A stretch of DNA of 44,829 bases from Escherichia phage vB_Eco_Lzu_P3, in the sequence record PQ295796; one strand, 5' to 3'. Shown here one piece after another: positions 1 to 44,829 of this stretch; position 1 is the stretch's first letter; the number at the start of each line of letters is the position of its first letter. The translations under genes and the position numbers were made by a program. Under the pieces are notes generated by a model that had not been told where the DNA came from, searched no databases, and saw nothing but the letters and a program-made list of their open reading frames with translations.

Positions 1-127
1 CCCGCTTCGTTATGCGGGGTTCTGTCGCGCCATTTCGTCCAGCGCAACGCGTTCCATTAGCTTGATATCTTTAAACGCACGTTGCGCGTTTTCGATTCCG
101 TGCATCTTAAATAACCATTCCAGTACG
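1..127. repeat. Terminal duplication: 1..127 is identical to 44703..44829 (probable circular-assembly overlap)
   Basis: Compared directly: the window begins cccgcttcgttatgcgg… and ends …ccattccagtacg, both present at each end. 127 bp is a common maximum assembler k-mer size. Confidence 0.8.
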
Positions 128-333
128 CCGTAGTCTATGCCGTATGCCCCGCCAAATCCGGTACGCCACTGCGTGGAGCAATCTGAGAAGACTGCGACTA
201 CCTTAGCGTTGTCGGGCCACAGCGCAACGGGCGGACACACGTCTTCAGGTGTCGCACCCCATAAACTCGCGGCTAAATCTTCTGAGGGTGGCGGCGGGCC
301 ATAAAAGCGCCGCGCCGCCTCAATTAGTTTTTT
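10..333 (-). CDS. Tail assembly chaperone, T-frame extension reached by -1 frameshift from the G frame (GT fusion product)
   Basis: I translated the -1 frame by hand: it is open from the slippery heptamer A_AAA_AAC (minus strand, + coords 327..333) through the ORF-track ORF 10..240 with no stop. Position directly upstream of the tape-measure gene on the circular map matches the lambda G/GT arrangement. Confidence 0.5.
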   Translation of the reverse strand, partial: KKLIEAARRFYGPPPPSEDLAASLWGATPEDVCPPVALWPDNAKVVAVFSDCSTQWRTGFGGAYGIDYGVLEWLFKMHGIENAQRAFKDIKLMERVALDEMARQNPA

Positions 334-686
334 TCACGCAACCCCATCAATTCGAGGTAGTACGACGTATGGAACACGCCGAACGCGCGCGGGTAGTTGA
401 CTACCAGGCGGCGGACGTTGGTAGCATTAAATTCGTCCGGCAAATTCCAGCCTTCAGCGACGTGCATGATGGCCTCGACCATAACGTTAAATCCTTCCGG
501 GTCATTGTCGTCATACTCCGACAATTTGCGCTCAGTGTCCTGCATGGTCTGCGAAAATTCGTCGATAGGGCGGTGGCGCACGGTAAACGTCATTTTGCCC
601 GGTTCGTTCTCACCAGGGCGCGGGATCTCAATCGGCAGCTTAAAGGTAGGTTTAGGGTCAAGTGTGAAGAGTGGTGATTTAGCCAT
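324..686 (-). CDS. Tail assembly chaperone (lambda gpG-like)
   Basis: 120-aa ORF immediately downstream of the major tail protein gene. Start moved to ATG at 686, which has a GGAGAA RBS 7 nt upstream. Ends in ...GLREKN* with the slippery site at its 3' end. Confidence 0.6.
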   Translation of the reverse strand: MAKSPLFTLDPKPTFKLPIEIPRPGENEPGKMTFTVRHRPIDEFSQTMQDTERKLSEYDDNDPEGFNVMVEAIMHVAEGWNLPDEFNATNVRRLVVNYPRAFGVFHTSYYLELMGLREKN

Positions 687-701
687 TATGTAATTCTCCA
701 A

Positions 702-5987: not shown

Positions 5988-6752
5988 ATGAGACTGACGA
6001 AAGACATTAAAAATCAGATCCTGGCTAACATCCTGCGCGACCACGAAATCGCGGCAGAAGCCAAACAAATCATGATGGACTCTCGCGACCTGGCGTACGC
6101 AATCACGCTGGACTGTATGCCGGAAGGCATTCGCACGTTCGCAGCGCTCCGCGAGCATATCAAGGCAATCCACGATGACCAGTCGCAGATGTACGGCGTC
6201 AGCGTATACACCAACAAGGCGACGTATAGTTATAACACCGACCGCCCGAAGGGTATCGGCAGCGTTTACGACGCCACCTTTGAAATCAACGCAGGCGGCA
6301 ATGTTCGCACCTTGTCCTTGAGCGGTGACGGTCGCCAATTCCGCGTGCATCGCGGATACTGGGAAGAGAAATATATGAATAAGCTCGCGCCTGATCTCGG
6401 CGATATCGTTCCGGGGTTCGAGACAGTTATGCTCGCGTCAGTGTGCGAAGTGGACGAGGAAGGAAAAGCGCTGCCGATATATCTCCCACGCGGTCGCGTA
6501 GACTACCCGGCGGACCATGACTTCTGTAAGCGCCTGGACCGCAACGACAAGGCACGTCGCGAGTTGCGTGCGAAGTATGACGCGTTCAAACTCACCGTTA
6601 CCGGTGTACTGGACCTGCACAATACTGACAAGAAGCTGATTAAGGCATGGCCTGAAGTTGAGCAATTCATACCATACCCGGACAAGCCAAAATCCACGGC
6701 GGTGGCGCTGGACGTGAAAACACTCAACGAGATTTGCGGCATTCCGCGCTAA
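5988..6752 (+). CDS. Hypothetical protein (254 aa, second gene of reverse-oriented cassette)
   Basis: ORF with AGGA RBS, followed by a bidirectional terminator at 6753..6786. No motif I could recognise. Confidence 0.6.
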   Translation: MRLTKDIKNQILANILRDHEIAAEAKQIMMDSRDLAYAITLDCMPEGIRTFAALREHIKAIHDDQSQMYGVSVYTNKATYSYNTDRPKGIGSVYDATFEINAGGNVRTLSLSGDGRQFRVHRGYWEEKYMNKLAPDLGDIVPGFETVMLASVCEVDEEGKALPIYLPRGRVDYPADHDFCKRLDRNDKARRELRAKYDAFKLTVTGVLDLHNTDKKLIKAWPEVEQFIPYPDKPKSTAVALDVKTLNEICGIPR

Positions 6753-6786
6753 CAAAAAGGGGCCATTACGGCCCCTTAATTATTTG
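6753..6786. terminator. Bidirectional intrinsic terminator
   Basis: AGGGGCC-attac-GGCCCCT with A/T tracts on both sides. Lies between the convergent cassette and the spanin genes. Confidence 0.6.
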
Positions 6787-9818: not shown

Positions 9819-11204
9819 TTAGTAGAAGTCTACGGTTGGAACAACGGCGATCGGACGAATCACAGGGAACAAGTGCGCAATAGGGTAGCCCGCCGCGTCA
9901 TTCATGTGGTCCACACCGGCAGTTTTATCCGGTTCGCCTTTCTTCAGGTCGTACACCTGCTGTTCCAGACATTTCGCTAGTGTAGGGCATTTATCCAGGT
10001 TGACAAAATACTGGCGCACACCCTTCGAGTTGCACATCATCGTATTCATCGCGATAAGTCTGTCTTTCACAGGCGGGTTAACGCTGTCATATTCCACATC
10101 GAAGCCCGCGTCTTCCAGTTGTGCGATATCGGACGACGACGCGTTGACCGTCTTGCGGGATTTGCCACTGCTATCCGGGTAAACGACGACCCTACCGGCG
10201 GCACAATGTTCCGGGTAGCGCTCTTCGATCGCCTCAATCATAGCCGGGGTGTCAAACAGGTCCACAAATTCATCCACCGCGTGAATCTCGTCGCGGAACT
10301 CCTTGTTCTCGGTAACTCGCTGCCGTCTGACGTACACAACCGCCGCCATCTTCGTGACGTTAAAGTCCATACCGATAATCAGCGTGTCGTCCGGCTGCAC
10401 TTCTTCGGTGCTGGCGTTCTCCTCGCGGTTGAACATCTTGTACACCGCGCCCGACGTAAGGTTAACAAACAGGCCGTTCAGGTACGCATCAATCAGGTTA
10501 GCCGGGTACTGACTGCGCAGCGTGTCGATAAAGTCCGCCGGTAAATGGTGGTTGTCCGTGGTCTTCGCCCGGATCAAGCGTTTCTGGTTGTCTTTCTCCA
10601 CCTCGAAAATTTGGTACATCGCCCGGTAGCCTTCAGGCGTTGACACGATGACGAACTGGCGGACGAAGCCAGCACGCAGACGACCGAGCAATTTGTGATA
10701 TGCCGCCAGCGCGACGTCTTGCTTCGTAGTGTCGAATTCATCGGCAACAATCCACGCGGCGTTGACCCCGATCAGGCGGGTATAGTTCTCCATTGATTCA
10801 CAGATAACGCGTGTCCATTTCCCTTTCACCAGCACGTTATAGATCTTGTCCTGCTTATTGAACTTCCACCGGAATCCAGCCTCATCAAACGCCTTTTCCA
10901 ATTCCGGGTACATGATTTTAACCAGGAGGGGAATAGTCGGTTCTGTAACGATGCCGTCATGACCGGGGTTAAGGGTTAAAAGCTGGATGACCTTACGCGC
11001 AGCGACCCACGACTTTCCACCACCGAAGCCGGAACACAGGCCGAGGATTTTAGTCTTCGTGTCGCGCAGTAGTTCAACCTGGTGCGGCAAGCAATCAGGC
11101 TGGTAAAGGCGGACGGCCTGCGCAACGCGTGTTGGGCGTGGCGGTCGGTTGCGCTTTGCGATCGCGCGTTCCAGTGCGCGGTGTTCTGCCGCATAGTTAC
11201 GCAT
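9819..11204 (-). CDS. Terminase large subunit
   Basis: 461 aa with an N-terminal P-loop-like motif (GFGGGKS) and a C-terminal nuclease-like region. Start codon overlaps the small-subunit stop (ATGA). Confidence 0.8.
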   Translation of the reverse strand: MRNYAAEHRALERAIAKRNRPPRPTRVAQAVRLYQPDCLPHQVELLRDTKTKILGLCSGFGGGKSWVAARKVIQLLTLNPGHDGIVTEPTIPLLVKIMYPELEKAFDEAGFRWKFNKQDKIYNVLVKGKWTRVICESMENYTRLIGVNAAWIVADEFDTTKQDVALAAYHKLLGRLRAGFVRQFVIVSTPEGYRAMYQIFEVEKDNQKRLIRAKTTDNHHLPADFIDTLRSQYPANLIDAYLNGLFVNLTSGAVYKMFNREENASTEEVQPDDTLIIGMDFNVTKMAAVVYVRRQRVTENKEFRDEIHAVDEFVDLFDTPAMIEAIEERYPEHCAAGRVVVYPDSSGKSRKTVNASSSDIAQLEDAGFDVEYDSVNPPVKDRLIAMNTMMCNSKGVRQYFVNLDKCPTLAKCLEQQVYDLKKGEPDKTAGVDHMNDAAGYPIAHLFPVIRPIAVVPTVDFY

Positions 11205-11755
11205 TATTCACCCTGGCCTTTGCCGGTAGGTTCCACTACGACGTCGCCGTTATCATCTTCGTCGTCGTCCAGCGTTACATCGTCGCGGACGCCGTGGTTT
11301 GCTTTAAGCAGGAACGTAGCGAAGCCTGCCGCGATGGTCACGCCGCCAGCTTCCATCAGGAAAGTTTTCTGCAACTCCATAGCGTCCGCCATCGCCTCGG
11401 CGAACTCCTCATGCGCACGCGCCCAGCGATACAGGCAAGCTACGCCCACGCCGATTTCCGCGGCAAATCGACCGAAGGTTGGCATTTTGTTGCGGGGGAT
11501 TACTTGCGCAGCGCCTTTATCGGAGTAGTTTACCTGCCAGGCGTCGGCATCGGCAAAATAGCGGCGAAGCTGGTCGCAGTAAACGGATCGGTAGTCAGTA
11601 GGGCGTCCACATTTGCCGCCTTTACGGCGCTTTCCGTACTCGATTTCAGGTCCGAGATTGGTATGCTCGGTTTGCTCGCCTGGTTTACGGCGCGGGGTTA
11701 CTGCTACTCGTCCGTCCAGTTTGGCGCGTCGGCCCTTAACTTTGATTTCTGCCAT
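11204..11755 (-). CDS. Terminase small subunit
   Basis: Contains GRPTDY…MPTFGRFAAEIGV…LYRWARAHEEF, resembling the HTH region of terminase small subunits. Start is uncertain: ATG 11755 or 11776, or further upstream. Confidence 0.55.
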   Translation of the reverse strand: MAEIKVKGRRAKLDGRVAVTPRRKPGEQTEHTNLGPEIEYGKRRKGGKCGRPTDYRSVYCDQLRRYFADADAWQVNYSDKGAAQVIPRNKMPTFGRFAAEIGVGVACLYRWARAHEEFAEAMADAMELQKTFLMEAGGVTIAAGFATFLLKANHGVRDDVTLDDDEDDNGDVVVEPTGKGQGE

Positions 11756-11885
11756 GATATAAGCCCTTTTGTTCATATGTGCCGACCATCGGCAACATAG
11801 GAGACGGCCCTGCCATCTAAGGGGGATTATAACAGGCACAAAAAAGCCCACCAAATCGGCAGGCTGGGAGGCTTACCGGTTGCCG

Positions 11886-15034: not shown

Positions 15035-15253
15035 AATCTGCCCCATAGGTATTTAACCAGACTAATAACCGACGCCAACAGCACCAGGGCCGCCAGACTA
15101 CCGCCACATACTACCGCGAAGACGTATAGCATCGAATTGCCCCTTCCGGTTTGCCAATATGGCGCGCCCACGCACGCGCCACGAAGTAATTGCGAAATAC
15201 CCGACCGCCTATCTCGAAGCGGTTATGCTGAAGCATATCACGGATCGTCGCAC

Positions 15254-15871
15254 TCATTTCAGAATCACCGAGCGCGGGTCGATGGCTTTCATGCTGCCGT
15301 CTCGTTCTACCCGGATAAACCCCACGCCATATTCCTGCGCATGGCGCTGTGCATTCGTAACGGCATCAAAGCGATTGATGATTTGGTGTACGGCTCGGCC
15401 CATCTCCGCTTGCACCTGGTGGGAGTCGTAGGTTGCATAGGCGGGCTGCGACTTGCGGAACTCCACACGCGTCTTCTGCGCCACTTCACGCGTTACGCGG
15501 TTAACTGCGTCCGCTATGGCGCTCGCCCGCTCATGCGGCTGGCGGTCCCGAAGGCTGTATTTGCGGCCCACTCGTTCGTAGTTGACAAGGCCGAAGTAAG
15601 TCATACCGGCGACGCCATCCTTGCGGGATTGCATACGCAGGCCATGAAGCCCGACATACTCGACGATCCACATACTGCCGTCGCGAATATCACGCAGCAC
15701 ATCGCCGCGCTCAATATCATGCGTGACAATATCGTATTTCTCCGGAAGTTTAGCTTTTGTCGCCCACCAGACACGATCGCTTGCGGCGTGGTGTAGGCGC
15801 ACGTATGCGGAAAGGGTCTGTATTGGTCTAAGGATTTTGCCGTCCGATTTGCGGCGGAATAGTAATTTCAT
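15254..15871 (-). CDS. Hypothetical protein (205 aa)
   Basis: ORF with GGAGA RBS upstream of ATG 15871. No recognisable motif. Confidence 0.5.
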   Translation of the reverse strand: MKLLFRRKSDGKILRPIQTLSAYVRLHHAASDRVWWATKAKLPEKYDIVTHDIERGDVLRDIRDGSMWIVEYVGLHGLRMQSRKDGVAGMTYFGLVNYERVGRKYSLRDRQPHERASAIADAVNRVTREVAQKTRVEFRKSQPAYATYDSHQVQAEMGRAVHQIINRFDAVTNAQRHAQEYGVGFIRVERDGSMKAIDPRSVILK

Positions 15872-16513: not shown

Positions 16514-16668
16514 TATTAATCATGCGCATGAAAAAGTCGATCGCTATCTGCTGTGACTGCAAACTGCATTTTCCGCCCACCATTCAGCAACTCGCATTGG
16601 TTGCCTAGTTCAGTGACGACCGCAATCCGCAACATGCTGCCGTGTATTTTGCAATCCCGGATTTTATG

Positions 16669-16838
16669 CAGTCTCAGACGAGGGGGGCCATCGACCCCCG
16701 TCTAGTCTGAAAGACTGGGGGTTGTCCCGCCTGTCCCGCTCCCCTCCAGGCCGCGTCATCCGGGGGTGGGACGGGGTGCTGTCCCGCTTTGTCCCGCCCC
16801 TGGTCTGTCCCGCTTTTTGTCCCGCTTACTTTATGCAG
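16669..16838. repeat. Iteron element A: 70-bp GC-rich hairpin block plus six direct TGTCCCGC iterons, then an A+T-rich segment with TTATGCAG boxes
   Basis: Read directly. 16669..16738 matches 44397..44466 with one mismatch. TGTCCCGC starts at 16723, 16732, 16780, 16790, 16806 and 16818. Confidence 0.85.
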
Positions 16839-16931
16839 TTTTATTGCATAACTATGCACTATATTCACACTACACGGCAACCAATGCGACCAGCTAAAAA
16901 CACTCAAAATGGCAACCAATGCGCGCAAAAA

Positions 16932-19196
16932 TTAATCTTTCAGGTCATCATCGGTCGCCGAAAGCGTGATGGGGATATCCGATTTGATGACTAAATTCGA
17001 CGACCCATATATGGCCCCGGTGTGCGGATCTGTATAGAAACCAATCACGCCGCGCTCGACCATATCGTCGATTGCCTTCGTCGAAGTGCCACCCTTAGCG
17101 AGTCCCGCCTGGCGGACGATTGCCGATTTACTGAAACCAGTATGGTCCGGGTTATCTTCCATCAGTTTTTCCAGGGCCGCATAAAGCACTTTCTCTTTTT
17201 CGGTGCGCGGACCGGCGGCGTTTTCTTCCTTAACTGCGGCTTTTCCTGCGGCCTTCGCTTGTTCTATAGCGAACGGAGCCAGGGCGACCGGTACGAGGTA
17301 GAGAGTCTCGTCGCGTGGCGTGGATGCAATTGGCTTGACGTCCCAACCGGCAACCACATCCCCGAAGTCTGGCCCGGTGCTGGTGGACTGGTGCGACGCG
17401 AATGCCTCAGACTTGCGTAGATCAACCTTAACTTTGCACTTGAGCAGGACGAAGCCACGCGGCGCTTGCTTGATGCCGTTACGTGATTTTTCGTGGTACA
17501 GGTTCAATTGTCCGGGCTGGTTGTCGTCCGGCTGTTCCAGGAAGAAAGCAGAATCGACAGCACCATGCAGCGCGCCGGACCCGCGTGGCGTTCTGCTGCC
17601 GTTTGCCCCTTTCGCCGGGTGGTGGATGACGCCCGCACTGCCGCCTGTATTTTCCGCGATGGCTTTCAGCGCTTTGACAACTTCACCCATATCGCTGGCG
17701 TTGTTCTCGTCGAACGGTTTAGCATCGGCGGACCGCAACGCAACAGTCTGGTTGAGTGAGTCGAACGCCACCAGGCCGACCGGCTCGCCGTTAGCAGTGC
17801 GGTTGATATAGCTGATAACTTCGCGCAAACCGGACTTGCTGGTGATATCCCATCCGCGTGACTGCAGATCGATAATGTGCAGCTTGTCGAGGTCGTGCTC
17901 GTATTTAATCTGCAATGCTTCTTTGCGCTGGTTAGAGGCTTCACCACCTTCCGCGTCGAAATAGAAGCAATGAGACTGGACGACCTTCGCACCACCAAAC
18001 GGAATACCGGCGGCAACCGCACCCATCTGCCCAAGCACATAGAAAGACTTACCGATATTCGACTCACCCGCCATATACCAGGTCGATTTAAAGTTAATCA
18101 GACCTTCGATGATCGGGTCGTGCTTACTGAACAGCGCAACCGGCTCGTTATCCAGATCCGCATCGGTGCACACGCCATATTCTTCGCCGTCGCCCACCGC
18201 ATCAACAATGTGATCATATAAGGATTCGACTTCCTCGTCGTCCAGACCTGGCAGGATGGCGGCGATTTGCTTACGCGACATGTTGTGCGGCTCGACGTTC
18301 AGGTGGTCCGGTATCCCGATAAGACGTAGCGCCAGGTGCTGGTGTCTATTTAGCTCCGAGCAACACTCGTTGCCGGTGTGCATACACTTGAAACGGATCT
18401 CGCCATCCTTGACCATGATAGCCGTCGACCCTTCTCCGCTGTGCAGATGTTCGTTCGGGCACGGCACTTCATAACCGCGACCGGAAGATAACTCCTCGAA
18501 TCCTGCCTGGAAGCACCAGTCCAGAATCCCGTCCGCCACTGCGTCGTCGCCCTGGGTAAGCTCGCGGCGTACTTCCTCCTTCTCCACCCCCAGCTTATCC
18601 GCCAGGCGAAGCAGACGACGCACATTAGCGCGCTTGCCGTAGTGGCACTTAATGACAGACTGCTGGTGTGGCAGGTACATAAGACGGTTTGTGTCTTTCG
18701 TGCAATCGTCGAAGTCAACATCCGACAGACCAAGTTGGTCTAACAGCGCGTACTGCACGCGGCCCAGGTCTTCCGCCGGGACAGGCTTGTCAGTGAGTAC
18801 CAGGAAGCGAGCGCAACGCGTGCCGCCTTTCAGTGGGTGACGGTCGCCGGTTGTGGTGTGGAATACGTGCTCCAGCCCCGCGTCTATAAAAGCCTTACGG
18901 CAGCGGCGTAGGGTGCGGGTGTCGGTACGGTCGATATCGAAGAACAGGATCGAGCGGTCCACCGCACTGGTCTTACGACGTAAGCCGTCACTGGTATATG
19001 CCACGATGCCATCGGCCTTACGCTTGCGGCGTGCATACTCGGCTTTATCTTCCGTCTTGTTGATATGCACCGAGGAGATTTCTTTCGCGTCATTGATAAA
19101 TTCGAAAAATTCATCGGTGGTCATCTGGAAGTTTTCCGCCCTGGCTTTTTCGCCTTTTTTAGCGGGTTTTGTTACAGCGAATTTAATTAAGCTCAT
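16932..19196 (-). CDS. DNA primase-helicase with C-terminal putative DNA-binding domain
   Basis: 754 aa. N-terminal primase-like region, a Cys/His cluster (CPNEHLH…CMHTGNECC) and a P-loop (GESNIGKS) in a RecA-like ATPase region. C-terminal segment is winged-helix-like. Confidence 0.7.
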   Translation of the reverse strand: MSLIKFAVTKPAKKGEKARAENFQMTTDEFFEFINDAKEISSVHINKTEDKAEYARRKRKADGIVAYTSDGLRRKTSAVDRSILFFDIDRTDTRTLRRCRKAFIDAGLEHVFHTTTGDRHPLKGGTRCARFLVLTDKPVPAEDLGRVQYALLDQLGLSDVDFDDCTKDTNRLMYLPHQQSVIKCHYGKRANVRRLLRLADKLGVEKEEVRRELTQGDDAVADGILDWCFQAGFEELSSGRGYEVPCPNEHLHSGEGSTAIMVKDGEIRFKCMHTGNECCSELNRHQHLALRLIGIPDHLNVEPHNMSRKQIAAILPGLDDEEVESLYDHIVDAVGDGEEYGVCTDADLDNEPVALFSKHDPIIEGLINFKSTWYMAGESNIGKSFYVLGQMGAVAAGIPFGGAKVVQSHCFYFDAEGGEASNQRKEALQIKYEHDLDKLHIIDLQSRGWDITSKSGLREVISYINRTANGEPVGLVAFDSLNQTVALRSADAKPFDENNASDMGEVVKALKAIAENTGGSAGVIHHPAKGANGSRTPRGSGALHGAVDSAFFLEQPDDNQPGQLNLYHEKSRNGIKQAPRGFVLLKCKVKVDLRKSEAFASHQSTSTGPDFGDVVAGWDVKPIASTPRDETLYLVPVALAPFAIEQAKAAGKAAVKEENAAGPRTEKEKVLYAALEKLMEDNPDHTGFSKSAIVRQAGLAKGGTSTKAIDDMVERGVIGFYTDPHTGAIYGSSNLVIKSDIPITLSATDDDLKD

Positions 19197-19206
19197 TGCC
19201 GTTGCC

Positions 19207-19536
19207 TTATTTGGAAGTTTTATTATTGCGTACCCAGGATCGCACGGTGCTCTGATTAATTCCTGTCAACTCCGCGATCATTGCCCATGACTTCCCCTCA
19301 TCACGTAAACGGATAACCTGTTTTTTGTATTCTTCCATTTCCTCATTGTGCTTTTGCAGCTTGCTTGCTGCCGTACCGTTGAGTAATTCCAGCTTCGCGC
19401 GCAATTCTTTCTCGGTAAGTCGCAGACGTTCGATTTCAAATAGCACCGCACCCACGGCATCGGTATATGCCCAGGACCGGCTTGTCTCACTGCAAACAGT
19501 CTTAGTTAACATTTCGATTGCGTCGTCGATATTCAT
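19207..19536 (-). CDS. Putative HTH transcriptional regulator (first gene of leftward early operon)
   Basis: 109 aa. C-terminal segment GKSWAMIAELTGINQSTVRSWV resembles an HTH. GGAGA RBS. A palindromic operator-like site lies in its own leader. Confidence 0.5.
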   Translation of the reverse strand: MNIDDAIEMLTKTVCSETSRSWAYTDAVGAVLFEIERLRLTEKELRAKLELLNGTAASKLQKHNEEMEEYKKQVIRLRDEGKSWAMIAELTGINQSTVRSWVRNNKTSK

Positions 19537-19936: not shown

Positions 19937-20446
19937 ATGTTTGAACAAATCGTAAACCTGATTACTCGCGGCGTAGTAGCACTGGAAACAATCGCTAAAC
20001 ATTATGAAACCGTTGGCGCTGCCGTTGGTAAGCAGGAAGATAAAAAGCCATCTAAGGCGAAAAAAGAAGTCGTAGAAGATGACGACGCTGAAGACGAAGC
20101 ACCGGCGAAAACCAAAAAAGCACCGGCGAAAGGTAAGGCCAAAAAAGAAGTCGTAGAAGATGACGACGATGAAGCCGAAGACGAAAAACCGGCGAAAGGT
20201 AAAAAAGCCACGGCGAAAGGCAAAGGTAAGAAAGATGCCGATCCGCTGGCAGAGATGCGCGACGAAATCAAACAGTATGCCGCGATTATCGCCGGTGGTG
20301 ATGACGACGACGCCAACGACGAATTTGACGACCTGCTGGAATCGTTCGAGATCAAATCAATCGCTAAACTGGAAGATGACGACGTCGAAGACTTCCACAA
20401 AGATCTGAAAGAAATCGTCGAAACCTATTTCGAACTGGAAGACTAA
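19937..20446 (+). CDS. Highly acidic early protein with internal charged repeats
   Basis: Start chosen at ATG 19937 with GGAGA RBS; the ORF track extends it to 19709. Contains tandem KKEVVEDDD(A/D)E…PAKGK repeats. It is the first gene downstream of the strongest predicted early promoter. Confidence 0.5.
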   Translation: MFEQIVNLITRGVVALETIAKHYETVGAAVGKQEDKKPSKAKKEVVEDDDAEDEAPAKTKKAPAKGKAKKEVVEDDDDEAEDEKPAKGKKATAKGKGKKDADPLAEMRDEIKQYAAIIAGGDDDDANDEFDDLLESFEIKSIAKLEDDDVEDFHKDLKEIVETYFELED

Positions 20447-22690: not shown

Positions 22691-23473
22691 ATGGCTAAAG
22701 TCAACCTGAAAAATGTGCGCGTATGTTTCCTTAAAATTTGGGAGCGCGATACCCCTAAACAGGATGGTCAGAAACCGGCATACCGTGCAGTGATTCTTCT
22801 TGATAAAGAAGATCCGCAGGTGGACAAAGTGGAAGCGGCAGCGCGCGCAGTGCTCACCGACAAGCTGAAATCCGAGAAGAATGCTGATAAGTGGATGGAC
22901 CGCCACTACGCCCAGGATTCTAAGGAATGCGCAGTTCGCGACGGTGACGAGCGCGATGAAGTGACCGAAGAATTCGAAGGCATGTTGTACATCAACGCCA
23001 AATCGTTCAAACAGCCGATCATTCAAACGTCACTCGGCGAGAAGCAGACGGAACAAGGTCTGACCGTAGAAGGCGACGAGATCGAAGGCCAGGAGATCTA
23101 CTCCGGTTGTTATTGCAATGTGTCCCTGGATATTTGGGCGTGGAACAATACCAACGGCAAGGGACTCGGTGCTGGTCTTTTGGGTCTGCGCTTCCGCGAT
23201 GACGGCGAAGCCTTCGGCGGTGGCGGGTCTTCTTGCTCAGACGAAGACCTGGGCGACGATGACGAAGATGAAAGCCCGCGCAAGTCCAAAAAATCAAAAC
23301 GTCGTGATGACGATGACGAAGACGACAAGCCGCGCAAGTCCAAAAAATCCAAGCGCCGCGATGACGACGACGAAGATGAAGATGAGAAACCTCGTAAACG
23401 TCGTAAGCCACGCGATGACGAAGATGAGGACGACGACGAAGACGAAGCACCACGTAAACGTCGCCGCCGTTAA
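22691..23473 (+). CDS. Putative ssDNA-binding protein (T7 gp2.5-like / DUF2815-like) with charged repeat C-terminus
   Basis: N-terminus MAKVNLKNVRVCFLKIWE… resembles phage SSB-like proteins. C-terminal third is made of PRKSKKSKRRDDDDEDD-type repeats. Start at ATG 22691 with GAGGAA RBS. Confidence 0.45.
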   Translation: MAKVNLKNVRVCFLKIWERDTPKQDGQKPAYRAVILLDKEDPQVDKVEAAARAVLTDKLKSEKNADKWMDRHYAQDSKECAVRDGDERDEVTEEFEGMLYINAKSFKQPIIQTSLGEKQTEQGLTVEGDEIEGQEIYSGCYCNVSLDIWAWNNTNGKGLGAGLLGLRFRDDGEAFGGGGSSCSDEDLGDDDEDESPRKSKKSKRRDDDDEDDKPRKSKKSKRRDDDDEDEDEKPRKRRKPRDDEDEDDDEDEAPRKRRRR

Positions 23474-31747: not shown

Positions 31748-32323
31748 ATGTACGGCGAATATGAAATAACCGGTAAACAATTCCACCTGGCGGCAATGAT
31801 TGCAAGCATCGAGTTTGAACAGTGGCGATACAAGTCTGACGCGTGCAAGCAAAGCAGACTCGTCGGTGTGCTGGGCGAAATGTTTGCAGGCATGTACCTC
31901 GAAGGGCAGGCGGGCGGGCGTAGCTGTATCCCGCAAGGTTTGCTAATGCGTACCGGCCTGTTTAGCGCTAACACTATCGACCGCGGCGATATTATCATGG
32001 TTGGCAAGCGCAAGGTAAAATCCGGTCCCGACTTCCGCGAACATATGATTGATGCCGTCTGGACCTACGAGGTTAAGGCTACCAGCGGCATCCGTCGTGG
32101 GCTGGTTGAGGCACGTTGCGCTCGCGAGTATCTCATTCGTCGAGTTGCCGGTGTTATTCTGGTGGGGGTGTCGTTCGGGCAGCATAGCGCCAGCGGCGTG
32201 ATTGAGGATATTGCGGAGCCATACGTGATAGTTAACGATTGGCCCCTGGTGGAAGTGGACGGTAAGGAATATTACGAAAGCCCGCTTGTGCGGCGCAAAA
32301 TGGACTGGGAAAACTCAAACTAA
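31748..32323 (+). CDS. Hypothetical protein (191 aa)
   Basis: GAGGGA RBS. It is the last gene of the plus-strand block before the bidirectional terminator. Confidence 0.5.
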   Translation: MYGEYEITGKQFHLAAMIASIEFEQWRYKSDACKQSRLVGVLGEMFAGMYLEGQAGGRSCIPQGLLMRTGLFSANTIDRGDIIMVGKRKVKSGPDFREHMIDAVWTYEVKATSGIRRGLVEARCAREYLIRRVAGVILVGVSFGQHSASGVIEDIAEPYVIVNDWPLVEVDGKEYYESPLVRRKMDWENSN

Positions 32324-34479: not shown

Positions 34480-35444
34480 TGGGCGCTGGGATACTTATCG
34501 ACTACAACGACGGAAGGCCGCGCATGGAGATAACCGCAGGACTTCGCGCGCCGTCATTCTGTACCTCATTCTATCAGCGCTGCCAGTCTGATAAGACGCT
34601 TACTATTAACACTCAGCTAACGCCAGGGTCAGATCTGGTCGTCGCGCTCACAAGCCCCGTTGAAGTTATAGAAGTATTCGACCAGACACTGGTCTTGCCC
34701 GACCCTTTCTACGTCACCTCAGTACAACGTAATGGGGATGGCGGAATCACCTTGCGAGGTGAAGACGCATATGGCGCATATAGCGGGCTTCCAACATGGG
34801 GCGGGGTGATCATGGAAGTGTTGCCGGTGGGTTCGAGCAACGCAGGGTTACTGGTGGCGAACTCGACGGACTTCACCGCCATATCAAATGTATCCAGGCT
34901 AATGACCTGCCAATATGCGCAGCGCGTGTGGGTGAACGGAAGTATGCCGTTACCTGTAGGCGGTGTCCCATTCGCGCGCTGGGACGACGGAAACGTGTCG
35001 GTCGGCTTCGATGGCGGAAGTATTATCGTCCGTAATGCGTCCTATGGTGGGATTGACGACGTAGGCGCTGCCGTTGAAATGGACCTGGTTATATTCAACA
35101 ATACGCCACCCACCCCTGGAAACGGCATCACCATGACAAACAACCAGGGTCAGGTCACGTTCTCAACAGTGAATAAGCCATTTGTTTATGACCGCCTTAT
35201 CTATATCGGCGGCGGCGATCAGTACATAGGCAATAGCCTGGTCCAGCTTTCGTATACCGGCGCGCTCATTGAGAACAACGGCGGCTACAATCACGTTCGA
35301 ATGAACGGGATTCGAATGGCGGGCGGTAATGTGCGCATCGCCAAAAACCGGGTAATCGGCAACTATTCACGGCAGCAATTCCAAATGCCGGGTAAAAATA
35401 TTGCAGTACCCACCCCGTTACTCGTAATTCCTAACATCTATTAA
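34479..35444 (+). CDS. Hypothetical Gly/Asn/Val-rich protein, predicted beta-helix-like
   Basis: ATG overlaps the lipoprotein stop (TAATG), with a GGGAG RBS. Repetitive …NGGYNHVRMNGIRMAGGNVRIAKNRVIGN… segments suggest a parallel beta-helix. Confidence 0.4.
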   Translation: MGAGILIDYNDGRPRMEITAGLRAPSFCTSFYQRCQSDKTLTINTQLTPGSDLVVALTSPVEVIEVFDQTLVLPDPFYVTSVQRNGDGGITLRGEDAYGAYSGLPTWGGVIMEVLPVGSSNAGLLVANSTDFTAISNVSRLMTCQYAQRVWVNGSMPLPVGGVPFARWDDGNVSVGFDGGSIIVRNASYGGIDDVGAAVEMDLVIFNNTPPTPGNGITMTNNQGQVTFSTVNKPFVYDRLIYIGGGDQYIGNSLVQLSYTGALIENNGGYNHVRMNGIRMAGGNVRIAKNRVIGNYSRQQFQMPGKNIAVPTPLLVIPNIY

Positions 35445-35470
35445 AAAGGGGCCGGATGGCCCCTTCTCCT
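35443..35470. terminator. Bidirectional terminator between the beta-helix gene and the J-like gene
   Basis: GGGGCC-ggat-GGCCCC with an A-tract upstream and T-rich sequence downstream. Confidence 0.55.
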
Positions 35471-39531: not shown

Positions 39532-40262
39532 TCTGTGATATCCCCCGGTAGGTCTTTATGACGTACCCATTTAACCACATTGTCGCGGAAAAATCCTGAC
39601 CGGAAGGGTATCACGCTCGACAGACTGCCGTAGATATGGTGAAGTAGTTGGTTGCCCGGAAGGAATATCCCGGCATGGTTAGGTACTGGCGCGCTGATTT
39701 GCATAATTACCATTGCCCCCGGCGTATTTTCCTCACACTCCCTGAAGCCCGCTCCGTACCAATTATCCATATACAGATTCTCGCCTGTCTCCCACCAGTT
39801 ATACGGCACGCGGAAGTCATGCAGGTTTACACCCTGCTTTTTGTGCCAGTCCATGACGAGGCCGTAACAATCCGTAATTCCGAGAACAAATCGACGCCCC
39901 ACCAGCGGAGGATCTTCAGGGTCGATCTCGATAAAGTCGCCATATTCGTTAGTGATGGCCCAGACTACGCCGCTGCCGTTGCATCCGTTAACGTCGCCCA
40001 GTGATGGGGTAAGCTCTCGCTGGCCTGGATGCGAGTGGACTACGCGCACGACGTCGCCCATATCCTCCGCATCCATCCAGGCCATATCACTAATCGTGAA
40101 CGCGTCTTTGCGTGAGCGCACGCCGGTAGGGTCTTCGAATACGTTCGGGCACGGGACAAATACTTGTTTGCGGCCCACCATGACGACCAGCCCACAGGCT
40201 TCTTCCGGCAGACATGCCGCAACGTGCGCGGCGATATCGCTTTTAACCTTTTTCGTTAACAT
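39522..40262 (-). CDS. Tail assembly protein (lambda gpK-like; MPN/JAMM plus NlpC/P60)
   Basis: JAMM-like motif VVRVVHSHPGQ at the N-terminus and a Cys/His peptidase-like C-terminal half. Confidence 0.75.
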   Translation of the reverse strand: MLTKKVKSDIAAHVAACLPEEACGLVVMVGRKQVFVPCPNVFEDPTGVRSRKDAFTISDMAWMDAEDMGDVVRVVHSHPGQRELTPSLGDVNGCNGSGVVWAITNEYGDFIEIDPEDPPLVGRRFVLGITDCYGLVMDWHKKQGVNLHDFRVPYNWWETGENLYMDNWYGAGFRECEENTPGAMVIMQISAPVPNHAGIFLPGNQLLHHIYGSLSSVIPFRSGFFRDNVVKWVRHKDLPGDITEWQ

Positions 40263-40264
40263 GG

Positions 40265-41053
40265 CTACCCCTTAATCAATTTGGACCCTGGAAAACCACC
40301 GAAGTCCAGCACCGCAGCTTTCGGGTCAGCAAGCCCCTGGCCAAAACGAAGATAACAATCTGACAAACAGCCACCGCATCTGTCCATATTCATTGCGATG
40401 ACTTCGTTTCCGCGTTCGTCGTAATACTTGATGCCTGGCTGCGCAAGGTTCCAAGTGCAACCGTCCCCGCTGGCGTACTTCCCGTTGAGCGCCCATTCGC
40501 ACATGTTCATGATTTGGCGACGTGGAACGACCTGCCCTTCCATATCCGCAGGTGAGGATAGTGCGAAGGTGATTTGCTTGCCCGGATTGCGCCCGACCTG
40601 CGAGTCGATGTAATACTCCTGAACTCGTTTCTGCGTCGGGTCTGGGTCTGTCCCGTTGTCCAGGAACTTCGCGAACGTATCAATGATCTCAACCTTCGCC
40701 CCCAGTAGCTGGTCGTGGTTCAGCGACAGCCTGGTGATTATGCCGCCAATATCGACAATGGTCAGCTGCGGTTCCGCTGCCGTTGACGTGGAGAAGTTGA
40801 GGCCGGACAAATCAAAGGGCCAAAATTCGAACTCCTGCCCGCCGAAGAAGATGGATTTAGGCTTCAGCTTGTCCTCGTCACCCCCAGCGGCAGCAATATC
40901 CTCGGCAGTGTGCGGGATAAAGCAGTAATGAAAATAGTGATGGCCCGCTCCGATCGCGCCGTCGCCTGGTTCCACGTCCTGCGCGTCGATATGAATCAGG
41001 CGAACGCGGCCCGATGGGTCGAAGCGCGTCGCCTCGCGATATAATTTATTCAT
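40265..41053 (-). CDS. Minor tail protein (lambda gpL-like)
   Basis: 262 aa in the position of gpL, with a C-terminal Cys cluster (CGGCLSDC). Confidence 0.7.
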   Translation of the reverse strand: MNKLYREATRFDPSGRVRLIHIDAQDVEPGDGAIGAGHHYFHYCFIPHTAEDIAAAGGDEDKLKPKSIFFGGQEFEFWPFDLSGLNFSTSTAAEPQLTIVDIGGIITRLSLNHDQLLGAKVEIIDTFAKFLDNGTDPDPTQKRVQEYYIDSQVGRNPGKQITFALSSPADMEGQVVPRRQIMNMCEWALNGKYASGDGCTWNLAQPGIKYYDERGNEVIAMNMDRCGGCLSDCYLRFGQGLADPKAAVLDFGGFPGSKLIKG

Positions 41054-41685: not shown

Positions 41686-44328
41686 TCATCGTTTGTAAAG
41701 TACACCACCCGGTTTCGTCGCTTTCACGATCTCGGCCTTCACCGCCTCGGTGATTTGCTTGCCGAACGCCTGCGCTGTACGGGGGTCTGGGCCGCTCACA
41801 CTGGTGTCTGTTTTACCGGACCCAGTGTAAACGTTAGTCGTCACGACCATACCACCGCCTGCACCCGACGCGGCAACGCCAAGTTTCCCGTCCGGCCCGC
41901 GCTTCAGTGGCATGATGGCCTCGGGTCCAGCCTCACCCATCAATCCTGCGCCCTTAGCGAACGCCTGAACGCCATAACTGAAAAAGGTAGGCTGGCTTAC
42001 CACTTTCCCCGAATAGGCCGCCAGATTGCCTCCTGCGTACGCTCCGCCGTCCGCATTCTTAGTCAGGCCAGAGAAGATAGCGCCGAACAATCCGTTTTTG
42101 CCGCCGTCGCCACCGAAAGCGCTAACGATGGACTTGAATGCCTGCGAGGTGGCCAGCTTGATTAGTTCGCTCAGGATGGATTTAACCATATCCTTTGCGT
42201 TCAGCTTGCCAGTCTCGAAAAACTCGTTCATCGTGTCCTGCATAGCGCTGAACGTGAATTTTGTGAGAGACGTCATCTGCGTATAGCCGTTACCCATTTC
42301 ATCCACGCTATCCTTAAGCCCGCGACTGAAGCCATCCCATAGCGAGGCGTTAGCACCGGTCTGTGCTTCCTGCACTTCGCGCAGCTTAGACACCGCCTTG
42401 TCGATATCCGTATCGTTAGCGCCAACCCGCTTCAGGCGGTCAATTAGCTGCAATTCTTCCCGTAGGTTTGCCGCTTCGCGAGTGGAAAGCGCATAGCCCG
42501 CGGCGGTGGCTTTTAGTTCGGCGTTCTGATTCTTAACGAAGGCATCGATCTGCGCGTGCGCCTTAACCTGCTTCTCTTTCGCGTCCAGCAATTTGGCTTC
42601 TTCGACGATCTGCTCGCGCACTTCCTTCACGCGTCCGAATTCGGCCATCTGCTGCTTTTCGGCTGCCGTTAGTGCTCTTTCTTTGCTCGCAGCGATTAAC
42701 TGCTCATTGTCGGCGATCAGCTTGTTTAGGGCCGCTTGCGCGCGTTGCGTGCGGGTCTGCATAGACGCGTTGGCTTCGATCTGCTTGCCGGATTCTCGAA
42801 GCTGGGCCAGTTCGCTCCGTGCGACTTCCAGCATTTTCATACCGGCATCCACGCGAACAGCCGCGGCCTTCTTCGGGGCCGGGTCTTTGTAACGCTCGTT
42901 TACCTGCTTAACCGCCTCAGCAAGCTCTTTCTCGTCAATAACGCCGCGCTTATTCAGCAAATTGAGGCGGGCGATCTCGTCTGCGCGCTTCTTCGCGTTG
43001 GTTGCGTACTCCTTCTCGAACGCAGCGCGGTCGCGGGCGGTGCGGTTAGCCTCCTCGTTCGCCTTTGCGGATTCGTCTGCGGATCGGGCGTTGTCTCGCT
43101 CCGCACGGTTACGCAAGGTGAGCGACGCCACTACCTTTTCCTGGGCGACCAGTTCGCTATAAAGCATGTTAATACGTGCTTTCTGCGCTTCGGTCATCAC
43201 TCCACCGGCAGCGTTTACCGCTTTCATCTCGGCATAGTAAGCCGTTGTCATGCGCTGGAGTGATTCGCGCGCTTTCATCTCCGACTCATTGGAGGACTGC
43301 GCGCGGCCCACATCCAGGATAGCGTCCCACATAGATTTAGCCGCCGATGTGACGACGTTCATCGACCGCTCAAGCGTGCCCATGTTCGCCTTGATATCGT
43401 TGGTCATAGTGGTGAACGATGCCGCGGCGGTTTTGTTCGCCAGCGCAACTGCGTCTGTCTCACGACCCATATCCACAAGCGACTGCACCTGCTGGATCTG
43501 CGCTTCGTTTACGACGTGATACTTATCTGCCAGTGCGCGCAAACCGCCTACGGGGTCAGTTGACAGCTTCGCCACCGCCGCGACCACATCTTCGACCGGC
43601 TGGCTGGACACCTTAGAGAAGTCATTAACCACCTTCGCCAGTGCACCGAAGTCAGCACCCGCCTTCACACCCGCCGCCGCCAGTGCCTGAATTGTGTCAC
43701 GCGTCTTGCGGAATGATCCGCCCATCCGCTCGGCGTTCTCGGATAGCACCAGGATCTGGTTAGCGGTGAGGCCAGAAATATTACCGGACAGCGCCAGCGT
43801 CTTGTTAAGCGCCGCCACTTGGTTTTCCGCGCGGGACATAATAGACACGCCAACGCCCATCGTTGCCGTTAATGCCGCGATGCCGATCCCTAACGGGCCG
43901 AGTGTGCCGACGACATAACGCAGCGTATTCCCCAACCCGCCAAACGCCCCCGTAAGCTGTGGTAACTGCTGAAGCATGACTCGATGCACCGGCATACCCA
44001 TTTCAAGCGTCACCGCGATATCCTGTAACTGGAATGCGGCGTTCCGCGATGCGAATCCCAGGTTTTTGGTCGACATGCCTAATCGGCTGGCGAGTCGCTC
44101 CTGTTTCGTCATGCCGTCGGCGGCCCGATGCGATTCAGTCGCTAACTTTTCCATCCCGCCAGCGGCGTCACCCGTGACCTTTTTCGTGTTGCCGAGGGTG
44201 TCGTTTAATTTTTTAGCTTTCCATTCCGCAGTCTCGGACTTCTGGGAAAATGAGTCCAGCGCGGTATTTGCCGTTTTGACTTGCGTGGCATCGACCTTTA
44301 GTGTGATGCCTGCTGCTTGATCTGCCAT
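41686..44328 (-). CDS. Tail tape measure protein
   Basis: 880 aa, largely alpha-helical/coiled-coil composition with Gly-rich segments, in the position upstream of M-L-K-I-J. Confidence 0.8.
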   Translation of the reverse strand: MADQAAGITLKVDATQVKTANTALDSFSQKSETAEWKAKKLNDTLGNTKKVTGDAAGGMEKLATESHRAADGMTKQERLASRLGMSTKNLGFASRNAAFQLQDIAVTLEMGMPVHRVMLQQLPQLTGAFGGLGNTLRYVVGTLGPLGIGIAALTATMGVGVSIMSRAENQVAALNKTLALSGNISGLTANQILVLSENAERMGGSFRKTRDTIQALAAAGVKAGADFGALAKVVNDFSKVSSQPVEDVVAAVAKLSTDPVGGLRALADKYHVVNEAQIQQVQSLVDMGRETDAVALANKTAAASFTTMTNDIKANMGTLERSMNVVTSAAKSMWDAILDVGRAQSSNESEMKARESLQRMTTAYYAEMKAVNAAGGVMTEAQKARINMLYSELVAQEKVVASLTLRNRAERDNARSADESAKANEEANRTARDRAAFEKEYATNAKKRADEIARLNLLNKRGVIDEKELAEAVKQVNERYKDPAPKKAAAVRVDAGMKMLEVARSELAQLRESGKQIEANASMQTRTQRAQAALNKLIADNEQLIAASKERALTAAEKQQMAEFGRVKEVREQIVEEAKLLDAKEKQVKAHAQIDAFVKNQNAELKATAAGYALSTREAANLREELQLIDRLKRVGANDTDIDKAVSKLREVQEAQTGANASLWDGFSRGLKDSVDEMGNGYTQMTSLTKFTFSAMQDTMNEFFETGKLNAKDMVKSILSELIKLATSQAFKSIVSAFGGDGGKNGLFGAIFSGLTKNADGGAYAGGNLAAYSGKVVSQPTFFSYGVQAFAKGAGLMGEAGPEAIMPLKRGPDGKLGVAASGAGGGMVVTTNVYTGSGKTDTSVSGPDPRTAQAFGKQITEAVKAEIVKATKPGGVLYKR

Positions 44329-44396
44329 TATGCAGTCCCCTTTTCTATGCAGTTGCCGTCGTTCATTGTATCAGCGAATTTACAACAAACCTTATT

Positions 44397-44711
44397 CAGT
44401 CTCAGACGAGGGGGGCCATTGACCCCCGTCTAGTCTGAAAGACTGGGGGTTGTCCCGCCTGTCCCGATCGGCTAAAACCCGCGGCAGCACTGACGGGGAC
44501 GGGGTGCTGTCCCGCTTTGTCCCGCCTCATTCTGTCCCGCTTTCTGTCCCGTTTGTATTATGCAGAAAAACCGCATAGCTATTCACTTTTAAGGGGCGGG
44601 GCAGATCGGGACAGCACCCCGTCCCGCTTTTAGTTTATGCAATGAAAGTGAGTATATATGCGGTTTAATGGTGGCGGGACAAAACGGGACGTCACGTTTT
44701 GTCCCGCTTCG
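44397..44711. repeat. Iteron element B: paralog of element A with at least eight direct and three inverted TGTCCCGC-type iterons and A+T-rich TTATGCAG/TTATGCGG boxes
   Basis: Direct copies start at 44451, 44460 (degenerate), 44508, 44518, 44533, 44545 (degenerate), 44620 (cGTCCCGC) and 44700. Inverted GCGGGACA-type copies are near 44606, 44674 and 44685. Confidence 0.85.
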
Positions 44712-44829
44712 TTATGCGGGGTTCTGTCGCGCCATTTCGTCCAGCGCAACGCGTTCCATTAGCTTGATATCTTTAAACGCACGTTGCGCGTTTTCGATTC
44801 CGTGCATCTTAAATAACCATTCCAGTACG

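Follow-up and report, generated by a model that had tools for sequence, protein, structure and literature searches.

A conserved iteron element separating tail chaperone and tape-measure genes in Dhillonvirus phages is a candidate second origin-type site

Introduction

Modular replication origins built from iterons are known from several mobile elements. The IncQ plasmid RSF1010 possesses an oriV in which iterons are combined with an A+T-rich segment and with ssi hairpins that act as single-strand priming signals, and which is served by RepC, RepA and RepB'. The plasmid-like replicon of satellite phage P4 reportedly carries the same short iteron at two loci, ori and crr, which are separated by 4.5 kb, and in its alpha protein a primase at the N-terminus is followed by a helicase and, at the C-terminus, by a winged-helix domain that binds DNA. 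In Bacillus phage SPP1, oriR has the repeat and A+T-rich layout of oriL and interrupts the late morphogenesis cluster, accompanied by morons and located between transcription signals (PMC6316719), and the origin-binding protein gp38, when bound at oriR, has been proposed to stall the replication fork and thereby to trigger the theta-to-sigma switch (PMC3485210). Here, we describe an iteron-rich element of Escherichia phage vB_Eco_Lzu_P3 (record PQ295796; the window, i.e. the whole stretch of DNA analyzed, comprises 44,829 nucleotides). This element, designated B, occupies the gap between the G-T tail assembly chaperone gene and the tape-measure gene, and a paralogous element, A, is located directly 3' of the primase-helicase gene. 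With moderate confidence, we take B to be most likely a second initiator-binding module of the origin type, comparable to SPP1 oriL/oriR or P4 ori/crr.

Similar to SPP1, there are two loci of direct repeats with an A+T-rich segment, one at the putative initiator gene and the other in the late region, where it breaks the conserved order of morphogenesis genes and is associated with putative transcription signals and, in the related Edwardsiella phage eiAU and the metagenomic contig 3300045988_050407 (050407 in the following), with morons. In contrast to SPP1, where the initiator is another protein and the helicase is of the DnaB type and is accompanied by a loader, a RepA/AAA_25 helicase is fused to a primase; moreover, oriL resides inside gene 38 and oriR among the head genes, whereas A follows the primase-helicase gene and B separates GT from the tape-measure gene within the tail operon. 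No gp38-type family turned up in the general Pfam/PHROG matches of the ten open reading frames (ORFs) scanned, and A and B have no sequence similarity to the SPP1 sites; the analogy is a functional one and not one of membership. The likeness to P4 consists in a single primase-helicase polypeptide, here with a predicted winged helix, and in the same iteron at two separated loci; however, these loci are much farther apart, one of them lies within a structural operon, and the similarity to alpha is only that of primase-helicases in general. The IncQ origins share the modular layout of iterons, A+T-rich segment and hairpin and the RepA/AAA_25-family helicase, but RSF1010 carries a pair of ssi hairpins, one on each strand, in place of a single hairpin block per locus, its three functions would here be fused in one protein, and a priming role of the hairpin is putative. 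We do not claim membership in the SPP1, P4 or IncQ families; the resemblance is one of architecture and of a presumed mechanism.

The element is already flagged in the public record as a database annotation. The 2009 record of Sodalis phage SO-1 (NC_013600) annotates the orthologous elements as repeat regions A and B, of which its 'region A' (11214-11597, between gp16 and the tape-measure gene) corresponds in position to B as named here, and its 'region B' (40178-40657, after the helicase-primase) to A. The accompanying note mentions direct, inverted and palindromic repeats as well as the similarity of the two regions to each other. A search of a searchable literature library returned no paper analyzing these repeat regions.

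Results

Elements A and B are paralogous iteron arrays

The initial annotation had described about 383 bp of non-coding DNA between the T-frame stop and the tape-measure start, with at least eight direct and three inverted iterons, two A+T-rich segments with associated boxes, and two blocks shared with A. The gap indeed measures 383 bp, and its hexamer GTCCCG occurs eight times on the plus strand and three times on the minus strand. Eleven copies of this hexamer are thus located in B and six in A, compared to 15 in the remainder of the window, and clusters are found at A and B only. The occurrence of 10-11 copies in a single 383-bp window contrasts with a mean simulated maximum of 2.5, and more than five were never reached in 500 first-order Markov simulations. 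Similarly, 23 TATGCRG boxes were found where 11.8 were expected, a number attained in none of 100 shuffles, and these boxes are clustered in A and B. Both A+T-rich segments of B could be verified, since here the GC content falls to 35-45%; 1-kb windows elsewhere in the genome range from about 47 to 59%. The 70-bp block (44397-44466 in B, 16669-16738 in A) does have a single mismatch, as had been noted, but the extent of the similarity had been understated, as it covers about 195 bp in total (87% identity in stretch D2, 77% in D7). The second common block corresponds to GGGACGGGGTGCTGTCCCGCTTTGTCCCGCC, of which B holds an additional inverted copy at 44595-44625.

In element A, 8-bp iterons (TGTCCCGC) form a cluster and are accompanied by an A+T-rich segment and by a conserved double hairpin rich in G/C. 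Element B (Table 1) has all of these and more, namely eleven iterons, which in part form inverted dyads, and a pair of A+T-rich segments. Of these, segment 2 is enclosed by a 31-nt inverted repeat formed by the block at 44496-44526 and its inverted copy. Folded as DNA, this repeat yields a z-score of -6.5, and none of 200 shuffles was as stable, so that a very stable hairpin or cruciform is possible. Each locus possesses a single hairpin block, oriented alike in A and B, and the two loci are separated by 17 and 27.7 kb around the genome. At either end of gap B, YGCATAA boxes are present. The longest ORF in the gap would encode 42 aa, and none of the gap ORFs is credible; coding was rejected for these small frames because the longest is of low complexity and derived from iterons and because the alignment of the gap contains many indels. 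A scan of the gap for tRNA and tmRNA genes returned none, and a BLAST comparison of B with plasmids and 5,426 E. coli genomes gave no match.

Table 1. Positions of elements A and B, their components and associated features in the window
Feature	Position	Strand	Remarks
Element B, entire non-coding gap from T stop to tape-measure gene	44329..44711	-	383 bp
Iteron dyad right after T stop	44673..44707	-	GCGGGACAAAACGTGACGTCCCGTTTTGTCCCGCC on the transcribed strand; terminator-like
A+T-rich segment 1	44628..44670		TTTATGCA and TATATGCGG boxes; GC 35-42%
Inverted copy of 31-nt iteron block	44595..44625		90% complementary to the direct copy
A+T-rich segment 2	44552..44592		TTATGCAGAAAAACCGCATAGCTATTCAC; common to locus A; resembles the A+T-rich segment of vB_STM-ZS
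Four direct iterons and 31-nt block common to A	44496..44551	+	GTCCCG at 44509, 44519, 44534, 44546; invariant across genomes
Two direct iterons	44451..44467	+	TGTCCCGCCTGTCCCGA
Conserved double-hairpin block	44397..44449		CAGTCT...AGACTG, AGTCT-GAA-AGACT, GACGAGGGGGG-loop-CCCCCGTC; stems invariant, loops vary
Invariant TGATACAAT	44365..44373	-	extended -10-like; B-specific; ~36 nt upstream of tape-measure ATG
Element A, paralogue of B	16664..16860		six iterons, A+T-rich segment, hairpin block; directly 3' of primase-helicase gene
Primase-helicase gene, replicative	16932..19196	-	754 aa; AAA_25; phrog_3228
Predicted C-terminal winged-helix domain	16980..17201	-	residues 666-739; structure model; candidate iteron reader
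109-aa helix-turn-helix (HTH) protein gene	19207..19536	-	upstream of primase-helicase; alternative candidate DNA binder
Tape-measure gene	41686..44328	-	ATG at 44328
T part of G-T tail assembly chaperone	10..240	-	DUF1799; stop 10-12 (= 44712-44714)
G tail assembly chaperone	324..701	-	Phage_TAC_4
-1 slippery heptamer A AAA AAC	327-333	-	canonical; just before G stop codon; joins G to T frame (read from sequence)
Small terminase gene terS	11204-11854		Pfam/PHROG scan
TTGGTTGC sites, first ten	5583, 5597, 13215, 15942, 16475, 16506, 16597, 16877, 16912, 19725
TTGGTTGC sites, other ten	22611, 22627, 26439, 29396, 29413, 31074, 31086, 34192, 39648, 42998

Element B is conserved throughout Dhillonvirus

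Synteny was assessed in 14 IMG/VR Dhillonvirus genomes in which both flanking genes could be located. The gap between chaperone and tape-measure genes is present in all 14, with a length of 382-406 bp, and the parts described above for A are likewise found in these genomes. Mean pairwise identity of the gap amounts to 84.3%, as opposed to 78.0% at the third codon positions of T and 72.4% at those of the start of the tape-measure gene. As the gap is thus better conserved than the third codon positions of its flanking genes, it is under purifying selection, and this lends support to the earlier proposal that the retention of such an element within the operon implies a function. In the alignments, iteron cores and hairpin stems show no variation, in contrast to the spacers and the hairpin loops. 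Identity among the A elements is 87.6% and among the B elements 88.1%, compared to 80.8% between A and B of the same genome and 79.2% between A and B of different genomes. Concerted evolution of A with B was considered and rejected, as the within-genome value hardly exceeds that between genomes and gene conversion would be patchy at most. Since locus-specific spacers and identities have been kept, A and B are old, separately maintained paralogues that have not been homogenized by conversion.

The copy beside the primase-helicase gene is ancestral

According to the initial annotation, the tape-measure gene normally follows the G/GT genes directly, and this is what is seen in more distant relatives: the gap comprises 13 bp in L023 (T protein 42% identical) and 93 bp with an annotated terminator in Serratia phage Scapp (T protein 40% identical), the two genes are essentially contiguous in L177 (major tail protein 44% identical), and in vB_STM-ZS (Guernseyvirinae; primase-helicase 43% identical) the tape-measure gene overlaps the ORF just upstream. 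The last of these phages has an A-type locus only, without a second cluster, in which seven TCTCCCC iterons, an A+T-rich segment (TTTTTCTGCATAACTATTC) and a G/C hairpin are located 3' of the primase-helicase gene. Because vB_STM-ZS has the A-type locus alone and the genes are contiguous in the other relatives, we regard the module beside the primase-helicase gene as ancestral and B as its duplicate. Judging from these comparisons, the insertion of B took place in the Dhillonvirus/Eiauvirus lineage, at a tail-operon boundary that already existed and was marked by a terminator.

Both loci are found in eiAU (Eiauvirus) and in 050407. In eiAU, the A-type locus is an 897-bp gap with CGCCCS iterons at four sites, and the gap of about 1.1 kb between T and the tape-measure gene contains reverse-strand genes, CGCCCS at eight sites and, before the tape-measure gene, a hairpin core (GACGGGGG...CCCCTCGTC) in which the bulged T recurs; the two loci share a 40-nt block of 90% identity. 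Contig 050407 (primase-helicase 67% identical) has the Dhillonvirus iteron and hairpin at both loci, and its gap of about 830 bp is occupied by a terminator, a reverse-strand moron and then B just upstream of the tape-measure gene. Between lineages, the iteron sequence therefore changes jointly in both copies. A scan of IMG/VR with a degenerate hairpin pattern mostly returned unrelated G/C hairpins and, in addition, the relative of 67% identity (L050).

The gap between T and the tape-measure gene appears to be a site of moron insertion, as it hosts unrelated reverse-strand genes beside B. One of these (L173 4464-4844, minus strand) would encode a protein of 126 aa with a hydrophobic, signal-peptide-like N-terminus, and those of eiAU (L007 42150-42718, minus strand) proteins of 117 and 70 aa. 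A weak match to DUF7301 is the sole Pfam match among these proteins, and the 117-aa protein of eiAU has no similarity to the 109-aa HTH protein of Dhillonvirus.

The primase-helicase is the favored candidate reader of the iterons

The primase-helicase gives primase-type PHROG matches at residues 15-177 and a RepA-type AAA_25 match at 357-531, and an AlphaFold model based on an alignment of 37 sequences predicts a winged helix of the order H-β-H-H-β-β at 666-739, with predicted local distance difference test (pLDDT) values of 80-90. A sequence search of the PDB with the primase-helicase and the HTH protein gave no informative match; the helicase matched 1g8y weakly, and a match specific to P4 alpha was retrieved neither here nor among the structural matches listed. 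Compared with HK578, in which the iterons are the same, the winged-helix domain is 100% identical and the primase domains only 72%; in 050407, where the iteron is likewise shared, the domain is 59.5% identical. It is the most diverged part of the protein in eiAU (14.9%) and vB_STM-ZS (28.4%), where the iterons differ, with the helicase core at about 60% in both. The 109-aa HTH protein, in contrast, is only 48% identical in HK578 despite identical iterons. This correlation favors the primase-helicase as the putative reader of the iterons, which would give it a domain logic like that of P4 alpha. The protein ends in an acidic tail, SATDDDLKD (residues 740-754; 16935-16979, minus strand), which follows the winged-helix domain and is kept in eiAU (SATNSDLED) and vB_STM-ZS (VEDDLEN). 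It is reminiscent of gp4 and gp2.5 of phage T7, whose acidic tails contact the polymerase.

Putative transcription signals at element B

After T, the minus strand reads CGGGAC-N10-GTCCCG followed by TTTTGT, a sequence that passed the scan thresholds on the plus strand only; the consensus form of this dyad, GGCGGGACGTCCCGTTTT, is more canonical as a terminator, and at the homologous position, right after the T gene, the record of HK578 (JQ086375) has an annotated rho-independent terminator. Ahead of the tape-measure gene, 13 sequences have CTGATACAAT without any variation, and TGATACAAT is a putative tape-measure promoter. Because of the terminator-like dyad after T and the invariant TGATACAAT before the tape-measure gene, B probably marks a transcription boundary, and it probably separates the expression of the major tail protein and chaperones from that of the tape-measure and tail-tip genes. 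A strict sigma-70 scan found no promoter in A or B. A different 8-mer, TTGGTTGC, occurs 20 times in the window (1.9 expected; a count reached in none of 100 shuffles) and is absent from B, with five copies around A. Many of its sites lie in or near gaps between ORFs, and several are paired at distances of 12-17 bp beside -10-like sequences. In eiAU and 050407, loci A and B are flanked by the same box (GCAACCAA). TTGGTTGC is probably an operator or promoter element of a phage regulator, and the 109-aa protein, with its matches to HTH motifs like that of sigma-70 region 4, is a candidate for its binding. Hairpins of the form AAAAAGGGGCC-loop-GGCCCC are present in three copies at gene ends (701-724, 6751-6774 and 35440-35463) and resemble ordinary bidirectional terminators.

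Discussion

A model of a two-site system can be sketched as follows. A phage-encoded specificity protein, most likely the primase-helicase by way of its C-terminal winged-helix domain, would bind both arrays. At A, the bound protein would open the A+T-rich segment and load itself, with the hairpin serving as a loading or priming signal. At B, there are two possibilities: the protein might fire a second origin, or it might be a cis partner or fork barrier, a function that has been proposed for gp38 at SPP1 oriR as well as for P4 crr; in the latter role, it might help initiation or switch replication from the circle-to-circle mode to one that produces concatemers. A further elaboration, by which the primase-helicase on the B array would stall or re-prime forks and so switch to concatemers, and would also gate read-through into the tape-measure and tail-tip genes, we consider doubtful.

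Several observations weigh against B being an origin-type site. Both initiation at A or B and binding of the iterons are predictions. If a position beside the initiator gene is taken as a mark of an origin, A has it (it abuts 16932-19196), but B, in the tail operon 17 kb away, does not. The GC skew follows transcription and gene orientation, with no switch at A or B; DnaA boxes (TTATNCACA, up to one mismatch) are not enriched, with 25 found versus 27 expected and one at each locus; and the iterons are spaced by 9, 10, 12 and 15-16 bp and are hence not strictly helically phased. The assignment of the winged helix relies on a model with a mean pLDDT of 72 and on weak Foldseek E-values (best 9.6e-3), and the origin-binding domain of P4 alpha is absent among the structural matches listed for it. 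The link between winged helix and iteron is drawn from five lineages only and could also reflect module shuffling or relaxed constraint, and Jerseyvirus and Kagunavirus-like relatives (primase-helicase 28-35% identical) are devoid of an array 3' of the gene. Finally, A and B are both positioned at boundaries of transcription units, which would fit an exclusively transcriptional role, a possibility that is serious even though we judge it unlikely.

In such a scenario, B would comprise an intrinsic terminator after G/GT, an operator array recognized by a phage regulator such as the 109-aa HTH protein, and a promoter driving the tape-measure and tail-tip genes. It would set the ratio of tail tube and chaperones to tape-measure and tip proteins, and A would have the equivalent task at the early/late boundary. 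The terminator-like dyad and the terminator annotated in HK578 speak for this, as do the canonical terminator hairpins with T-runs right after T in eiAU and 050407, the annotated terminator in Scapp, the invariance of CTGATACAAT and the fact that A separates the early primase-helicase gene from the operon that follows. In addition, a reverse-strand gene is situated between T and B in eiAU and 050407, and the tape-measure gene therefore needs its own promoter near B. However, a terminator and a promoter require far less than the eleven iterons, the pair of A+T-rich segments and the 31-nt inverted repeat of B, the recurrent motif TTGGTTGC is missing from B, as is a promoter in the strict sigma-70 scan, the iterons track the winged-helix domain of the primase-helicase and not the HTH protein, and vB_STM-ZS has kept the module only beside the primase-helicase gene. 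As the 8-mer is a different one, the GTCCCG arrays occur at A and B only and the architecture is origin-like, we take the transcription features to reflect a second, coexisting role. A role at the RNA level has also been considered, in which the hairpin block, with or without the G-rich repeats, would act on the tail-operon transcript as a processing site, attenuator or put-like antiterminator. The block hardly differs between A and B and does not vary within the genus, the hairpin core and its bulged T recur in eiAU, and one stem position forms a G-U pair on the transcribed strand and an A-C mismatch on the other. This invariance would, however, equally fit recognition by a protein or as DNA, the folding z-score of the block is only -1.9 to -2.1 and similar on both strands, the RNAalifold covariation term is +0.36 with zero compensatory pairs, and Rfam 15 gave no match at gathering score in the window, a permissive search yielding only sub-threshold hairpins of the miRNA type. 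A structured RNA thus finds no positive support, and we regard such a role as improbable.

Even less probable is that B represents an inert remnant of the duplication or a recombination hot spot for moron insertion, which has been kept because it is hard to delete. While the unrelated reverse-strand genes in the same gap of eiAU and 050407 and the YGCATAA boxes at both gap ends would be in line with this notion, length and sequence of the gap are conserved above the level of synonymous sites, the motifs are invariant amid variable spacers, and A and B evolved as separate orthologous lineages whose common motifs have been kept in three lineages. That B is a packaging signal (pac or cos) or a genome terminus we consider scarcely credible. 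This idea could draw on the fact that the assemblies of UAE_MI-01, EcoIv6a_Kente, the IMG/VR contig 3300045988_009799 (L020), eiAU and the present window all break in or near B. The positions of the breaks differ, though, and are located within repeated sequence (the eiAU record is linearized in the gap with a 16-bp overlap in the GCAACCAA repeat, and the window has an overlap of 127 bp), suggesting that they are due to the behavior of the assembler. Furthermore, the small terminase gene is located about 11 kb from B, and a paralogous second copy would result in two packaging starts. PhageTerm predicted headful packaging for Dhillonvirus Opt-212 (PMC9022532) and a cos site, ATCTTAAGGG, for EE09, the record of which was re-ordered by its termini (PMC10673088); in EE09, ordered in this way, B is located at 15037-15419 and hence away from the ends. 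Thus, among the functions initially suggested for B, the origin or crr-like site is the best supported, attenuation setting the expression of the tape-measure gene is plausible as a coexisting function, and a role in packaging is not supported.

Dhillonviruses, among them HK578, the BASEL isolates and the SECphi phages, have become standard test phages in work on anti-phage defence. If A and B are initiator-binding sites, they would be targets for origin mapping, for replication-dependent reporters and for inhibition by titration, and would guide engineering as to where B can be deleted or used as an insertion site. If B is indeed an origin-type site, then a second site of this kind in a late morphogenesis cluster would have arisen independently in siphoviruses of Gram-positive and of Gram-negative bacteria, and the theta-to-sigma switch that has been proposed to occur at a fork barrier would become testable in E. 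coli. In its elaborated form, which we consider doubtful as stated above, a two-site system would physically couple the dosage of the late tail genes to the replication state of the genome, and would span a widespread genus of virulent coliphages as well as Eiauvirus. The repeats of B also explain the frequent assembly breaks in the gap, and the 'hypothetical proteins' that have been called inside it in some records are probably spurious artefacts of the repeats.

Genome layout and further observations

Comparison of the window with itself revealed that bases 1-127 recur at 44703-44829, and we therefore consider it to be a complete, circularized genome of 44,702 bp with an assembler overlap, so that the T-frame stop at 10-12 is identical to 44712-44714. 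The 127-bp overlap begins within an iteron of element B and is of a kind typical of assembler k-mer overlaps. Megablast of the region returned 158 phage records, nearly all of Escherichia or Shigella Dhillonvirus (HK578/SO-1-like), with identities of 80-97%. Gene order was taken from the ORFs and from the annotation of phage EC115. A long block of minus-strand genes starts at about 19.5 kb, passes position 1 and reaches 32.3 kb; its genes and loci are, one after the other, the 109-aa HTH protein, the 754-aa primase-helicase, locus A, small genes, lysis genes, terminase, head genes, the major tail protein, G, G-T, locus B, the tape-measure gene and the tail-tip genes. Acidic coding repeats rich in D and E are found at 20053-20392, within an early ORF of 245 aa, and at 23255-23447, at the C-terminus of a Gp2.5-like single-stranded DNA-binding protein. 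Two further repeats were observed in relatives: vB_STM-ZS has a 67-nt inverted repeat at 31906-32039 (99% complementary, no spacer) at the start of the major capsid gene, which could be an assembly artefact, and the Jerseyvirus Salmonella phage JD01 has an intergenic tandem duplication of about 180 bp at ~440-790, upstream of its HTH and primase-helicase genes.

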